Shown piece after piece: positions 1,875 through 62,522 of a stretch of 64,000 nt of DNA. The notes beneath the pieces are model-generated. The model was not told the origin of the DNA. It saw only the letters and a list, made by a program, of their open reading frames with translations, and searched no databases. Position 1 is the stretch's first letter, and each line of letters begins with the position of its first letter. The stretch spans positions 1,372,241-1,436,240 of the forward strand of contig NZ_CP110854.1 in assembly GCF_027594745.1 (NCBI RefSeq), in the 5' to 3' direction. The translations under genes and the position numbers were made by a program. This stretch comes from Saprospira grandis (lineage in GTDB: Bacteria; Bacteroidota; Bacteroidia; Chitinophagales; Saprospiraceae).

Positions 1875-2298
1875 TTTGGGGCTGCCCCTACCGCTAGGTT
1901 GAAACCCAGCGCAAAGCGGTATCGCTTTGCGAAGCTACACAAAATGAGGGTTGAAACCCTCATAAATTATCGGTCGGGTCGGGCCATTGCGCAGCTCGCA
2001 GGTCTGCTCGGCCCTGCGTCGCTTTGCTCCTTGGTCTGCCGCCTTCGGCGGCCCTGCTACAGCCCCTCAGCCTGCGGGCCTTCGGCCCTTTTTAGCTGTA
2101 GGTTGAAAGCTTGGGCCAAGCCGCCAAAGCAGAACGCCCAAGCCAAACCGCTCCGATGAGCGGCCCAGCGCTGCGGAGGGGTGGCCGAAGGCCAGACCGA
2201 GCTTTTGAGCAAAGCGAAAAAGCGAAGGGCCGAACAGGCCTGTGAGCCCCGCAGCATAGCGGCGGCCAGCAAAGCTGGCCGCGGGCCCCAAAAAAAAT
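1875..2298. repeat. Full copy of the GC-rich MITE/BIME-like element (F arm, hairpin modules, R arm)
   Basis: Begins TTTGGGGCTGCCCC and ends GGGCCCCAAAAAAAA. Contains the core GCTCGCAGGTCTGCTCGGCCCTGCG, its reverse-complement-type arm, and two GGTTGAAACC hairpins. Short six-frame ORFs across it are artefacts. Confidence 0.8.
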
Positions 2299-2417
2299 AA
2301 AAAAATTTTACGCTCCTAAACAGCTGATAAAAAACAACTTAACAGGCGAGTAAAAAATAAATTCAGAAAAAAAGCGGCTAAAAATGAAAAAAGATTTGCG
2401 AGATCCAAAAAGCTGCC

Positions 2418-2425
2418 TTATATTT
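2418..2425 (+). promoter_or_regulatory. Candidate -7 promoter box TATATTTG for tRNA-Leu
   Basis: An exact match to the Bacteroidota sigma-A consensus TAnnTTTG lies about 20 nt upstream of the tRNA 5' end. The same box precedes tRNA-Met. Confidence 0.45.
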
Positions 2426-2444
2426 GCAACGTCGAAAATGATAA

Positions 2445-2529
2445 GCGGATGTGGTGAAATTGGTAGACACGCTAGACTTAGGATCTAGTGCCGCAAGGTG
2501 TGTGGGTTCGAGTCCCTCCATCCGCACCA
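2445..2529 (+). tRNA. tRNA-Leu (anticodon TAG), long variable arm, CCA encoded
   Basis: Acceptor stem GCGGATG pairs with CATCCGC. D-arm is TGGTAGACA, anticodon loop CTTAGGA, and T-arm GGTTCGAGTCC. Confidence 0.85.
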
Positions 2530-2699
2530 ATTTAGAAAGTGCAAATTCTGATGGGATTTGCGCTTTTTTTTTGTGCAAAACCAAAGATCGGCCTTAAATC
2601 TATGCCTAGAATTAAGACAACTTCAGTATCTTTGGGCCACTTTTGGGGAAAATCCCTAAAATTAAGATTTGATTATTAAGTTATTAAAGACTAGACACG

Positions 2700-59382: not shown

Positions 59383-59982
59383 ATGCTAGTAAAATGTAAA
59401 ATTAACTCCCAAAAACAATTAGCCCAATCATCTTCTAGTGCTTGGATTAAAAAGCACTTTAAGGACCTTTACCCCTATGGGATTGACTTGGAGTTACATC
59501 ATAATTATGTGGTGCATGCGATACAGTATTACCAGATTCCCTTTGTATACATTTATACTAGTTATGTCAATTTCCCAAGACCTTATCCCCTAGAATTTTT
59601 TGAAGTGGTTGATGCTCGGCTCTCTAAATACTTTTGTTTTGGAGAGATTCAGGGTTGTCCTATTAGTAGTAGCTTAGACCCCTTCATTAGTTTTAAGGAG
59701 TGGGCCGAGAATCCAGATTTCTTCAGTGATCTTGTTGAGGGAGAAGACTACACCAAAGTAGCCCAAAACTATAAGGAGAAACTAGAGGTAGAATTTTTCA
59801 ATCCCAACCTCAATATTAGTGAAGAGTCAGCTATCATCTTAGATCCCAAGATGAGCTGGTTATTTTGTCCCGCTTGTACAGAAAGTTGGGAGGTCCAGAC
59901 AGCTGATGAGATGACGGTTTGTCCCAGTTGTGAGCTGTATTATCATAATCCCTTTATAAAAAATGCTGGGGAGGAGTCATAA
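59383..59982 (+). CDS. Hypothetical protein with C-terminal CxxC...CxxC zinc-ribbon
   Basis: CPACTESW...CPSCELYY at the C-terminus. Start is probably MLVKCK. AT-rich and adjacent to the orphan ORF. Confidence 0.3.
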   Translation: MLVKCKINSQKQLAQSSSSAWIKKHFKDLYPYGIDLELHHNYVVHAIQYYQIPFVYIYTSYVNFPRPYPLEFFEVVDARLSKYFCFGEIQGCPISSSLDPFISFKEWAENPDFFSDLVEGEDYTKVAQNYKEKLEVEFFNPNLNISEESAIILDPKMSWLFCPACTESWEVQTADEMTVCPSCELYYHNPFIKNAGEES

Positions 59983-60404
59983 TGCTCTTCCTAATGAGAA
60001 GCATAAAAGCCGTTAAACAAACTAGCCAACAACCTTTTATGCCATGGGCTGAAGCCCATGATTGCGGGTCTATGCAAACTGGCGGGCTAAAGCCCTTGCT
60101 TGCTATAAATGATATGGGCCTATGGTTGAAACCATAGGCCCATATTTTTTTTGCAGCTGGCCAAGCTAGTTCATTTTATGAGGGTTTTAACCCTCATTCA
60201 TCAATCATTGCGGAGCAATACCATGCTTGCTGTAGGTTTCAACCTACAGTAAAAAGGGCCAAAGGCCCGTCGGCAAAGGCCAAATGAAAGCCCTGCCACT
60301 TCTATCCTTTGCTTTAATTTCTTGCTATTCTGCGTTATTTTTCTCAGCCATAGCTACGGCTATGCCTTTAAAAAATGCCTTGACTAGCCTGAAATTTTTA
60401 TCAA

Positions 60405-60550
60405 AGGATGGCCGAAGCGCAGAACTTCCATTCGGCCTAGGGGCCTGAAAGGGTGGCCGCAGGCCAGACCGAAGCGCGCAGCGCTGAAGGGCCGAGCAGA
60501 CCTGCGAGCCCTGCAAGGGCCCGGCCGCCGAAGGCGGCAGGCCCCAAATC
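60405..60550. repeat. MITE-like half element (R orientation)
   Basis: GGCCTAGGGGCCTGAAAGGGTGGCCGCAGGCCAGACCGAAGCG...GAAGGGCCGAGCAGACCTGCGAGCCCTGC...GGCAGGCCCCAAA. Confidence 0.75.
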
Positions 60551-62185
60551 CTAACCCACTACCCCACTTACCTTAATCAGATAGACATCTTGCAATTGTT
60601 CGGCTCGGCTAGCTGGGTTGAGGAACTTAGCCGTTAGTCTGGTCACATGAAAGTGATCAAAATGCTTAATCTTCTCGTAGCGGATGCCAGCTTTATCGAG
60701 TTCGGCCAAGCTTTTCCCACGGATGAGGATGATCCATTCGGCTTGTCCAGCGGCGGTTTCTATGTCCTTAGGCGAATCAAAGACCTTGGCCAGCTTGCCC
60801 AGATAGAAATCAAAAGAATGTTGAGAGAAATCATAGACCCCTACATTTTGCTCGGCCAAGCCCTCTTGGACCAGATAATGAGCCGCCTCAGAGCCCGACT
60901 GATAGGGCAAAAGCGCTTGATAGACATGGGCATTCATGCCTATATTCACGATAGCCATGGCAAAAACAGCGGGTAAGACCAATTGCATAGGGCGCTGCTG
61001 CTTGAACTTAAAATAAGGGATAAAGCTAGCTAGAGCCGCCAGAATAAGTAGGGCCAGCAACCAAATCGGGGCGCCAGGGAAGGCCCAGCCCATCAAAAGA
61101 GCCAAAAAGGCCAGAGCCGCAGTATGCAGGACAATACTTTGCCCCAAGGCCAAGGGCCAAACCCAAGACTTGCTCGACTTGGCCAAATTCATTAACTGAT
61201 GAGCCACCAAAACGGCCATCATGCCATACATCGGGAAGATATAATGCGGTAACTTATAACGAGAAAAAGAGAGGGCAATAAAAGGGAGAACAAAACCGCC
61301 AAGCGTCAGTAATTCGACCTTTTTCCCCTGCCAAAACTCTTGCAAACGGCGCAGCATGGCCCAAACCGCTAGGGCCGACCAAGGCAAAAAAGACCATAAG
61401 AAGGTGTGGACAAAAAAGAACTTTCCGCTATCATTGGCCCATTCATTTTCTCCAGTGATACGGCCAAAACTTTGCTTCCAGAAAAAGAAATAAATCCCCT
61501 CCCAATCGGGAAACTGCAGATAGAGCCCATACAGCATAGGCGCCAAAACCAACAAGACAATAGGTGCACCGAGCAGCCACTGCCAACGGAAGAGCATCTT
61601 CCAGTTTTTCTGCCCCAAAAGATAGCAGCCAATAGCGGCGCCAGGAACCACCGCCCCCAATGGCCCCTTGGCCATCATGGCAAAGCCCACTGCCACAAAA
61701 CCCCAAAACAAATGCTTGAGTTGGGCCCCATTTACGTACTTCACCAACTGCCAGATGGCCAAGATAGAAAAGTTGGAAATCAGCGTATCGGTACGCACAT
61801 CATGATTAAACATCAGCCAAGCTTGGGTGCTGGCCAAAATTAGGGCCGCCAATTGGCCCGTTTGCTTATTATAAAGCTCCTTACCGAGTTGGTAAGTGGC
61901 CCAAAACCCCATAATTGAAGAGAGGACCGAGGGCAATCGAAAGGCCCATTGAGAGACCCCAAAAATGGCATAAAACAAAGCAGAAGACCAAAATAAAAGT
62001 GGCGGCTTATCCAAATAATCCTTTCCCTTATGATGTACTTGCAACCATTCTCCCGACTGCAACATCTCTTGACTAATAGAGGCATATTGGGCCGAATCCA
62101 CATCCATAATCGTGACCATAAAAAGCCCCAAAACATAGGCGAGGGCCAAGGCCGGCCAGGCCCATTTATAAGCTGTAGGCTGCAT
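60551..62185 (-). CDS. GT39/ArnT-family glycosyltransferase (undecaprenyl/dolichyl-phosphate-sugar dependent)
   Basis: DKPPLLFW motif in the first periplasmic loop. Twelve or more TM helices and a C-terminal soluble domain. Confidence 0.7.
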   Translation of the reverse strand: MQPTAYKWAWPALALAYVLGLFMVTIMDVDSAQYASISQEMLQSGEWLQVHHKGKDYLDKPPLLFWSSALFYAIFGVSQWAFRLPSVLSSIMGFWATYQLGKELYNKQTGQLAALILASTQAWLMFNHDVRTDTLISNFSILAIWQLVKYVNGAQLKHLFWGFVAVGFAMMAKGPLGAVVPGAAIGCYLLGQKNWKMLFRWQWLLGAPIVLLVLAPMLYGLYLQFPDWEGIYFFFWKQSFGRITGENEWANDSGKFFFVHTFLWSFLPWSALAVWAMLRRLQEFWQGKKVELLTLGGFVLPFIALSFSRYKLPHYIFPMYGMMAVLVAHQLMNLAKSSKSWVWPLALGQSIVLHTAALAFLALLMGWAFPGAPIWLLALLILAALASFIPYFKFKQQRPMQLVLPAVFAMAIVNIGMNAHVYQALLPYQSGSEAAHYLVQEGLAEQNVGVYDFSQHSFDFYLGKLAKVFDSPKDIETAAGQAEWIILIRGKSLAELDKAGIRYEKIKHFDHFHVTRLTAKFLNPASRAEQLQDVYLIKVSGVVG

Positions 62186-62371
62186 AAAATGCCGTTTTTG
62201 ATATTTACAAAACTGCGCAAAAGTAGTACTTTTAAACTAGATTCATCGGCTATTATGGGGGCTTGCTCGGAAAACCCCCACAAACTGAAGCCCTTTAGGG
62301 ATGATTTTGTAATTTTACTAGCTGTTTAGCCGATTCCCAAAAATGAGGAGCATTACGAACTGTTCTTTTCT

Positions 62372-62522
62372 TTTTTGGGGCTGCCCCGCCCTGCGGGCGG
62401 GTCGGGCCATTGCGCAGCTCGCTGCTCGCTCGGCCCTGCAGCGCTTTCAGCGCTTTGGTCTGCCGCCTGCGGCGGCCCTGCTACAGCCCCTCAGCCTGCG
62501 GCGGCTTCGCCGCCTGTAGACC
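62372..62522. repeat. MITE-like half element (F orientation, CTGCTACAGCCCCTCAGCCTGCGG subtype)
   Basis: TTTTTTGGGGCTGCCCCGCCCTGCGGGCGGGTCGGGCCATTGCGCAGCTCGCTGCTCGCTCGGCCCTGCAGCG...CTGCTACAGCCCCTCAGCCTGCGGCGG. Confidence 0.75.

Follow-up and report, generated by a model that had tools for sequence, protein, structure and literature searches.

A dense and old family of folded intergenic repeats with alternating orientation in Saprospira

Introduction

What is the GC-rich module that recurs between the genes of Saprospira grandis, how was it dispersed, and is it still on the move? The question is raised by a 64,000-nucleotide (nt) stretch of contig NZ_CP110854.1 (assembly GCF_027594745.1, positions 1,372,241 to 1,436,240 of the forward strand), hereafter called the window. 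An original prediction, made from the letters alone, described one dense family of repeats resembling miniature inverted-repeat transposable elements (MITEs) or bacterial interspersed mosaic elements (BIMEs), and proposed that it had been mobilised recently. Here we show that the repeat is a unit with a closed, covarying fold, that the family is old and not recently mobile, and that neighbouring units alternate in orientation. The explanation that we favour, and to which we give about an even chance, is an old, lineage-specific family of Saprospira and related Saprospiraceae and Lewinellaceae that resembles repetitive extragenic palindromes (REPs) and BIMEs, was dispersed by an HUH/Y1 enzyme and is now sessile.

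Results

Copy number, extent and coding potential of the units

The 27-nt core GGGCTCGCAGGTCTGCTCGGCCCTGCG matched the window 11 times at three or fewer mismatches where no match was expected, and the head motif TTTGGGGCYGCC 18 times against an expectation of 1.9. Iterated nhmmer searches yielded 22 units, and a 23rd, degenerate copy at 27880-28095 was spotted by eye (Table 1), in good agreement with the approximately 20 copies originally predicted. Units occur at a density of about one per 2.8 kb; counted from head to closing stem P1 they cover ∼3.0-3.1 kb or 4.7-4.9% of the window, close to the 5% given before, and the self-similar DNA of the window totals 4.0 kb (6.25%). The size first assigned to the module, roughly 150 to 170 bp, had to be revised although the family itself stood: the distance from head to closing stem is 107-174 nt, two copies with insertions are longer, and optional tail hairpins are additional. 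No pair of window copies is more than 91% identical.

As predicted, all units of the window lie outside real genes, and those of the S. grandis Lewin plasmid lie outside RefSeq genes. The copies align to one consensus and are palindromic and non-coding, occurring as singlets or inverted doublets in intergenic DNA, which bears out the REP/BIME-like label. The recurring peptides GSQVCSALR and RAEQTCEP proved to be translations of the unit core. The GC-rich open reading frames (ORFs) over units and the N-terminal extensions of ORFs 48381-48977 and 62375-63601, both of which do enter units, are artefacts, as had been suspected; the Lewin homologue of ORF 48381-48977 is called at 162 rather than 198 amino acids (aa). 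Overlap with such ORFs is what a protein-coding origin could point to, yet hairpin lengths vary by non-multiples of three and the copies fall on both strands without a conserved reading frame, so that this origin is scarcely credible.

At gathering thresholds, Rfam returned two tRNAs only from the window and no match to the units, and a scan of one unit pair at E ≤ 10 gave chance matches only. The literature searched held nothing specific on Saprospira repeats or on a REP-associated tyrosine transposase (RAYT) or IS200 element of Saprospira. The family seems to be absent from Rfam and from the literature searched, and is apparently undescribed.

Table 1. Repeat units of the window and the riboswitch that one of them splits (window coordinates)
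Position	Strand	Feature	Remarks
1875..2071	+	Unit, subtype B'	Head TTTGGGGCTGCCCC, then ∼75-nt insertion with GGTTGAAACC hairpins; left member of tail-to-tail pair
2162..2297	-	Unit, subtype C (P1 GGCCC/GGGCC)	Right member of pair with 1875..2071
6846..6964	+	Unit, A-like	Left member of pair; divergent promoter region
7039..7178	-	Unit, subtype B (P1 GGCTT/AAGCC)	Right member of pair with 6846..6964
15125..15273	-	Unit, subtype A, long P2 hairpin	Head 18 nt from start of ORF 15291
18479..18587	+	Unit, subtype A, single	
20467..20593	-	Unit, subtype A	Head ∼7 nt past stop of gene 20601-21959
24023..24144	+	Unit, subtype B'	
25043..25165	-	Unit, subtype B'	
27880..28095	+	Degenerate B-type unit	Three nested ∼45-nt modules; without P4/P5; head 3 nt past stop of gene 26708-27877; missed by nhmmer
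29833..29960	-	Unit, subtype A	
33481..33597	+	Unit, subtype A, reference copy	Left member of pair
33688..33828	-	Unit, subtype B	Head T8 immediately after stop codon of gene 33829-34677; pair partner of 33481..33597
38915..39072	+	Unit, subtype A	In P3 loop of thiS-thiC TPP riboswitch; nested 46-nt module 38942-38987
38870..39169	+	TPP riboswitch split by unit 38915..39072	Rfam partial match, orthologue alignment
41398..41520	-	Unit, subtype B	Between thiC and thiE; antisense to operon
44437..44555	+	Unit, subtype D	
45211..45333	-	Unit, subtype A	
48889..49014	-	Unit, subtype A	Within ∼2.7-kb indel segment missing in CCB-QB6; overlaps false N-terminus of ORF 48381-48977
53403..53534	+	Unit, subtype B	Left member of pair
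53716..53889	-	Unit, subtype C	Nested ∼45-nt module after CTCGGCC; right member of pair with 53403..53534
57940..58071	+	Unit, chimeric: D-type head, B-type 3' end	
60433..60548	-	Unit, subtype D	Head 2 nt from stop of gene 60551-62185
62371..62495	+	Unit, subtype B'	Source of false N-terminal extension of DHH-family ORF 62375-63601

Architecture and covariation of the unit

A unit starts with a T-run followed by a GGGGC head. Its closing stem, P1, comprises 5 bp and pairs GGC-NN near the 5' end with N'N'-GCC at the 3' end. The 5' strand of P1 leads into a variable hairpin, P2, and then into a conserved junction that begins GCGCTACG... or GGGTCGGGC...; in P3, four nt pair with four nt near the 3' end, and this helix is extended by an irregular long-range helix. 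The core, GCTCGC-N6-7-CTCGGCCCTGCG...GGTCTG, is near-invariant and asymmetric and is kept across genera; its part GCTCGC-N6-7-CTCGGCCCTGCG is single-stranded in the fold. This part is followed by the variable hairpin P4, then by the segment TkGGTCTG and by P5, another variable hairpin, after which the 3' strands of P3 and of P1 complete the unit. Beyond P1 there may be tail hairpins, often TGCGGCGGC-TTC-GCCGCCTG(T/C)AG. At least five subtypes (A, B, B', C and D) can be distinguished by their P1, their junctions and their 3' ends. An automatic search for P1 by the longest complementary ends was too noisy in GC-rich DNA; P1 boundaries were set by anchor-based trimming.

To determine covariation, 53 units were aligned with MAFFT; they came from two Saprospira genomes, Phaeodactylibacter luteus and four taxa represented by metagenome-assembled genomes (MAGs). 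Pairing was counted for a structure that we specified (P1, the irregular helix, P3 and P5). Paired cells amounted to 94.5% compared with 74.7 ± 1.0% in shuffles, and 181 cells were changed on both sides compared with 61.5 ± 5.3. Sliding the partner by 1-3 columns as a control lowered pairing to 34-54%. P3 occurs in nine Watson-Crick versions (GGGG/CCCC, AGGG/CCCT, GCAG/CTGC, GCCG/CGGC, GCGG/CCGC, GTAG/CTAC, GTGG/CCAC, ATGG/CCAT and ACGG/CCGT) and P1 in eight (CT/AG, TG/CA, TT/AA and CC/GG; in other taxa GGACC/GGTCC, GCATCA/TGATGC, GCGCC/GGCGC and GCACC/GGTGC). RNAalifold independently recovered P3 and P5. The fold of the unit is under selection.

Wobble pairs are rare: G·U accounts for ∼5 of 938 cells, and nearly all changes lead from one Watson-Crick pair to another. 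Loops of 3 nt close 136 of the ∼200 P2, P4 and P5 hairpins. Among stem pairs, G·T has a share of 3.5% when the sense strand is folded and of 1.2% when the antisense strand is folded. The scarcity of G·U pairs, together with the 3-nt loops, points to hairpins at the DNA level that have to fold on either strand, unlike a typical structured RNA.

A separate nested module of about 45 nt (GTTAYTCCC..GGTCRTCGAACTG-hairpin-TTGTC) sits at varied positions within at least six units; in the window it was located at 27900-28065, 38942-38987 and about 53765-53812, and elsewhere at loci L011, L031, L105 and L115. Other repeats share the spacers of the units. A small hairpin family with a GGTT(G/A)AAACC centre and variable complementary stems (window ∼1947, 33668, 44605, 44660 and 45155) occupies the spacers of paired units and positions beside unit tails. 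Tandem arrays, none of them CRISPR-like, were seen in unit-bearing spacers at 58162-58380 (22 bp x10, CCATCGAGAGGGGTACAGCTAC), 44814-44905 (21 bp x4.4) and 28176-28450 (83/41 bp x2.4-3.4).

Orientation, pairing and placement of units

Along the window the units are ordered + - + - - + - + - + - + - + - + - - + - + - +, that is, orientation alternates at 20 of 22 transitions. The same pattern was found on the Lewin plasmid NC_016936.1 (19/20, including runs within the co-directional pur and paa operons) and in a metagenome strain, L228 (7/7). When the window was combined with 18 independent 8-kb loci of S. grandis DSM 2844, all 13 close pairs (<500 bp) were tail-to-tail, and distant neighbours alternated in 36 cases and did not in seven (binomial p = 4.5e-6). 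Units facing each other tail-to-tail were separated by 50-3973 bp (median 0.6 kb), and those facing head-to-head by no less than 1.9 kb (median 3.5 kb; Mann-Whitney p = 1e-7). The close pairs were all heterotypic, joining two different subtypes (p about 0.02), which is what intolerance of long perfect palindromes would predict. Accordingly, the four 'full elements' first proposed at 1875-2298, 6846-7177, 33481-33828 and 53404-53890 are real tail-to-tail pairs, but their halves belong to different subtypes and are not copies of each other.

These pairs bear on the MITE part of the original prediction. A classical MITE origin, in which the tail-to-tail pair would be a deletion derivative of an insertion sequence (IS) with a DDE transposase, the units its terminal inverted repeats (TIRs) and single units decayed halves, is very unlikely. 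Pairs of 330-490 bp with outward heads do exist, and their size and intergenic location fit enterobacterial repetitive intergenic consensus (ERIC), Correia and Rickettsia palindromic elements. Nevertheless, no target-site duplication was seen at the heads or at the 3' ends past P1, where the original prediction had suggested looking for one; the arms of 13/13 pairs differ in subtype; and single units are as common as pairs, in fact outnumber them, and alternate regularly even within operons. Moreover, each arm shows covariation of its internal fold, for which a TIR bound by a transposase would have no need, and neither a parent IS nor, in the window, a transposase was seen.

Units often abut gene ends, as had been noted (for example 27877/27880, 33828/33829, 49014/49020 and 60548/60551). 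On the Lewin plasmid, with its RefSeq annotation, the head's first G follows a stop codon by 5-8 nt in four cases and precedes a start codon by 14-57 nt in six, the rest being further off. Gene orientation gave no rule by which unit orientation could be predicted; in the window, 13 heads lie at gene 3' ends and 10 at 5' ends. Intergenic DNA read away from a gene starts T-rich on both sides. If insertion preferred the 3' side of a T-run, this would account both for heads that face genes and for the constant tail-to-tail placement of two units in one spacer. The replication-strand bias in orientation that is expected of palindrome-associated transposable elements (PATEs) derived from IS200/IS605 was not seen in the window or on the plasmid, where orientation alternates locally.

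Two gene blocks that vary between strains contain units. The window segment ∼47580-50270 (2.7 kb; a DsbD-like gene, the 162-aa ORF, an ArsP-like permease and a thioredoxin-like gene) is missing in Saprospira sp. CCB-QB6 and is preceded by an IS3-type (rve) insertion in DSM 2844; it carries one unit, and explains one of the two breaks in alternation. A supposed unit remnant at 47466 that would have restored alternation was rejected, the sequence being kept in CCB-QB6 within another hairpin. In the metagenome Saprospira L228, a 3.8-kb two-gene insertion (10979-14828) lies between GDPD and thiolase genes and matches window 17449/17457; it encodes a phage-tail-like PTL_trimer/Peptidase_S74 protein and a Por_Secre_tail protein, and CCB-QB6 has a STAS gene at this place. 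This insertion adds one '+' and one '-' unit, so that alternation is preserved.

Distribution, age and exchange among copies

When one genome per species was scanned for the pattern, many copies turned up in DSM 2844, further copies in P. luteus and several Saprospiraceae MAGs, and weak matches in a Lewinellaceae MAG; all other matches were chance hits in GC-rich genomes that a hidden Markov model did not confirm. Among 72,556 plasmids, only two Saprospira plasmids matched, each at 16-17 places, and viral contigs gave a single weak match to the core only. The 55-kb Lewin plasmid NC_016936.1 (L226) carries 21 units in 50 kb, the density of the chromosome. It also carries purF, N, D, B, H and Q, guaA, guaB, pyrD and the paa operon, and because of this de novo purine pathway, pyrD and paa operon it looks like an essential secondary replicon.

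Syntenic DNA of Lewin, DSM 2844, CCB-QB6 and metagenome strains is 82-98% identical to the window. In a 22-kb thi region, every unit site of the window is occupied in Lewin, DSM 2844, CCB-QB6 and a JGI contig, and in a second region of 21 kb, 5/5 shared sites are occupied both in CCB-QB6 (82-87% identical) and in a metagenome strain that is 95% identical. In total, all of the 12-13 sites examined over these two regions (∼42 kb) are occupied in genomes with 82-97% identity, and units differ only where gene blocks do, namely in the 2.7-kb DsbD/ArsP block (one unit) and the 3.8-kb two-gene block (two units).

At these shared sites, orthologous units are 81-87% identical compared with 94-97% for their flanks, and unit identity does not follow strain distance. 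When orthologues of the unit upstream of thiS are aligned, other variants that are common in the family are seen to have taken the place of the entire P2, P4 and core spacer, and the flanks stay identical. This alignment indicates patchy gene conversion among copies; orthologous units would diverge faster than their flanks because whole hairpins are swapped. The sub-variants shared by distant copies, originally read as a sign of mobilisation, are better explained by subtype lineages and gene conversion between copies. With sites shared across strains and a species-level relative and no window pair above 91% identity, the family is old and not recently mobile, and the recent mobilisation originally proposed is not supported.

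Saprospira short-read assemblies break precisely at units. Four Logan contigs of 2.4-2.8 kb (L121, L123, L124 and L127) end at units that flank single genes.

Units within operons and in a TPP riboswitch

Several units lie inside operons: an antisense copy in the thi operon and copies between pur and between paa genes. The most telling site is that of unit 38915-39072, which is flanked on one side by the 5' part of a thiamine pyrophosphate (TPP) riboswitch (ACTTTAGGGGTG and the 5' strand of the riboswitch P3, GTTTAGTTTTT) and on the other by its 3' part (AAAAACTAAAC-CTGAGA...GGGAAAAGTG). The insert in the loop of the riboswitch P3 consists of the 158-nt unit and a 21-nt tail, and the unit starts directly after the T-run of the loop. 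Rfam detected the split riboswitch only as a partial match of 29.5 bits (39073-39169) compared with a cutoff of 54.3, so that it is missed at the gathering threshold. In an Aureispira MAG, where the orthologue is intact, it reaches 74.5 bits and its P3 loop is short and T-rich. A closed fold inserted into this loop would be tolerated. Neither the thiS-thiC contigs of this MAG nor those of another relative contain units. The window and its closest relative share the nested 46-nt module at 38942-38987, which is missing from the orthologous unit of Lewin, DSM 2844 and CCB-QB6; it is the sole recent insertion-type polymorphism seen.

GC-rich hairpins that adjoin T-runs suggest intrinsic terminators, a possibility as far-fetched as a coding origin. 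Because the T-run lies upstream of the hairpins and an A-run often downstream, a unit can cause intrinsic termination in neither direction, and this layout would explain why units are tolerated in operons and in the riboswitch. Intrinsic terminators were rejected on these grounds, on the occurrence of units within the thi, pur and paa operons and the riboswitch, and on the existence of a separate terminator. The latter, at window 8966-9004 between the convergent recJ and a 1979-aa ORF, is a canonical bidirectional intrinsic terminator (AAAAAGCGCTAAGCC-TCAAC-GGCTTAGCGCTTTTTT) so that terminators of the ordinary kind exist side by side with the repeats. A composite transposon with '+' and '-' units around cargo was likewise rejected, because what lies between the units is thiS-thiC with half a riboswitch, genes for an arginase-family and a thioredoxin-like protein, and pur and paa genes.

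Units within the pur, paa and thi operons and the riboswitch must be transcribed, which invites a reading at the RNA level: the transcribed rod would act on the mRNA, for example as a barrier to 3'-5' exonucleases or as an RNase processing site, and so make stability differ along an operon. We consider this unlikely as the primary explanation. It accords with the covariation of the closed fold, with G·T being three times commoner on the head-first strand and with the conservation of sites over species-level divergence. However, wobble pairs are nearly absent and 3-nt loops dominate, at odds with known structured RNAs, and Rfam gave no match; both orientations occur with respect to transcription without preference (13 vs 10) and alternate strictly within operons; many copies are in divergent promoter regions; and orthologous units change far faster than their flanks. 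A role in mRNA stabilisation has been proposed for the REPs of E. coli and for ERICs, and such a role may exist alongside a selfish origin or alongside either account of alternation given below.

Search for a mobiliser and an insertion signature

The genes of the window are ordinary housekeeping genes, and no integrase was seen in the window or on the plasmid. The ends TTTGGGGC/GCCCCAAA, originally taken for terminal inverted ends of the element, more likely reflect the insertion target: the T-run is already present in the homologous riboswitch loop of relatives, and P. luteus copies occur without it. As regards a possible relation to PATEs, units start right after T-runs and the T-rich loop of relatives is intact. 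A 202-aa ORF (24232-24840) between two B' units was considered as a RAYT and rejected, since it has no Pfam hit and a signal-peptide-like N-terminus.

In P. luteus (L016), a Y1 transposase of 154-179 aa is encoded between two units whose heads face the gene. It belongs to Pfam PF01797 (E = 4e-22) and scores 62.7 bits against the NCBIfam IS200 model, and its motifs DHIH, WQ and YIKNQKAHH are those of subclass 1.2 of Quentin et al., for which the literature reports no REP-like partners. Its relatives, at 80 metagenome loci (44-75% identity) and a further 12 loci (75-94%), have no units within 2.5-3 kb and are flanked by other repeats. The adjacency in P. luteus is therefore probably coincidental and an instance of the usual arrangement in which heads face genes. 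Subclass-1.2-like Y1 genes with repeats of their own were seen in Phaeodactylibacter and Lewinellaceae: in P. luteus (L016, repeats at 6868-7030 and 7538-7690) and at L222-L224 they are flanked by ∼160-bp direct repeats with GTCCTGTAAGGAC-type hairpins, and at L213 by a ∼190-bp tandem array.

Discussion

Relation to known repeat families

The units share many features with the RAYT-mobilised REP, BIME and REPIN elements. Both are GC-rich palindromes of which many copies occur in intergenic DNA beside gene ends, and both occur as singlets or as inverted doublets of fixed type, often of two subtypes such as the Y and Z REPs of BIMEs. Compensatory changes in stems, subfamilies, vertical persistence of sites, absence of target duplications and tolerance in operons are likewise common to both; REP dimers of fixed type and stem covariation have been described (PMC3733652). 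In contrast to the single 20-40-nt hairpin of a REP, the Saprospira unit is a five-helix closed fold of 107-174 nt. A REP has a GTAG or CGTC tag at the foot of its hairpin, whereas the Saprospira head is a T-run with GGGGC(C/T); GTAG is confined to a subset of the optional tail hairpins (...CCTGTAG), and GCTAG or GCTGG precedes the 3' strand of P1. In addition, orthologous Saprospira copies swap whole hairpins, orientation alternates over kilobases and beyond clusters, and near-identical 'master' copies are absent.

The closest described precedent is provided by the 'atypical secondary structures' that flank Bacteroidetes TnpA-Y1 genes of subclass 2.6 (RAYT group 5; Quentin et al. 2018, PMC6006769). 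These structures have 3-nt loops and GCTAG/GCTGG feet, and copies are scattered in the host genome (PMC6006769). They stem from the same phylum, the GCTAG/GCTGG of Aequorivita next to GC-rich stems is comparable to CGCTAGGCC/CGCTGGGCC of Saprospira, and the Belliella structure is a 122-nt rod (PMC6006769). On the other hand, the units have no sequence homology to the structures listed there, and Saprospira is not in the text or tables of that study (PMC6006769). That a RAYT/IS200-type enzyme may have mobilised the Saprospira units is a reasonable conjecture.

The ERIC, Correia (NEMIS) and Rickettsia palindromic elements are of similar length to the units. They are imperfect palindromes of 100-150 bp that are transcribed within mRNAs and can insert into functional RNAs or genes non-destructively, for which the P3 loop of the TPP riboswitch is the Saprospira example. 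These families have terminal inverted repeats and form single long hairpins, and ERIC and Correia elements make TA target duplications. Alternating orientation is not known to have been described for any of the three. Integron attC sites have one orientation and lie after cassette ORFs next to an integrase, whereas the Saprospira units alternate and flank core operon genes.

Weighing the favoured explanation

According to the explanation that we favour, the selected object would be a single-stranded DNA (ssDNA) segment of ∼110-170 nt that forms a closed branched rod, composed of P1, P2, the irregular helix with P3, and P4 and P5 around the core. In the past it would have been dispersed as ssDNA by a structure-specific HUH/Y1 enzyme of the RAYT type and inserted 3' of a T-run without target duplication. 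The units would now be essentially sessile and homogenised in patches via gene conversion. Alternation, we infer, would be kept by selection, since direct neighbours may expose the intervening genes to excision or deletion and alternation maximises the spacing of same-strand copies. This is the account of alternation that we prefer.

Several observations weigh against this explanation. No transposase, HUH or Y1 gene was found in the window, in ∼0.4 Mb of Saprospira DNA (tblastn with the P. luteus Y1) or in the plasmid annotation, and the P. luteus Y1 was rejected as a mobiliser because its relatives at the 80 and 12 loci lack units in their neighbourhood but carry flanking repeats of their own, such as the GTCCTGTAAGGAC hairpin. 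Whole-unit presence/absence polymorphism was not seen in the two syntenic regions in up to five genomes, and near-identical copies were not found, so that mobility is deduced from dispersal and the riboswitch insertion only. The unit is 3-5x longer than classical REPs, and its head has neither a GTAG nor a CGTC tag. Fold-energy z-scores are modest (-0.15 to -3.2), because shuffled GC-rich sequence folds well too; with z-scores this unremarkable, the evidence for the fold is covariation and not energy. As to the selective account of alternation, the distance between neighbours of equal orientation is not clearly larger than that between alternating neighbours.

The alternation could instead be functional. 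Units would then be architectural or recombination sites at which a host protein binds the asymmetric core and inverted neighbours are synapsed, a proposal that we regard as rather unlikely. Besides the pdif sites discussed below, the convergent sites that form boundaries in loop extrusion would be a parallel. Near-perfect alternation on the chromosome, the plasmid and in the metagenome strain would fit it, as would the indel in which two added genes bring two added units with the pattern kept, and the almost invariant core across genera. Against it, there is no known candidate for the protein, conserved operons and a riboswitch are split by units that do not bound exchangeable modules, and selection against direct repeats can also yield alternation. 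The pdif (XerC/D) sites of Acinetobacter plasmids, of which successive sites alternate too, resemble the units in pattern only: they are 28-bp recombinase sites that flank exchangeable accessory modules, whereas the Saprospira units are folded, lie between core operon genes and have no known link to a recombinase. Were this proposal correct, which we doubt, about 10^3 units per genome (extrapolated from the density in the window) might serve as orientation-dependent folded sites for a dedicated core-binding protein. Inverted neighbours might, again with little probability, be paired as DNA in supercoiled loops or as RNA duplexes in polycistronic transcripts and so partition the replicons into units of one to a few genes.

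Implications

What is new here is the size and architecture of the unit, the extreme density, the swapping of hairpins and, above all, the alternating orientation. In practical terms, the units break short-read assemblies and create false ORFs and start codons, and one of them hides a TPP riboswitch from Rfam. If our explanation is true, the family would be among the densest bacterial repeat families known, and would extend the REP/BIME concept to large multi-helix folds in Bacteroidota. The exchange of hairpins at conserved sites would make it a natural system for the study of gene conversion and palindrome maintenance. Near-perfect alternation demands either a new selective principle, which keeps direct repeats or same-strand cleavage sites far apart, or a function; in the less likely event that the alternation is functional, it would constitute a previously unknown layer of genome and operon organisation in Saprospiraceae.

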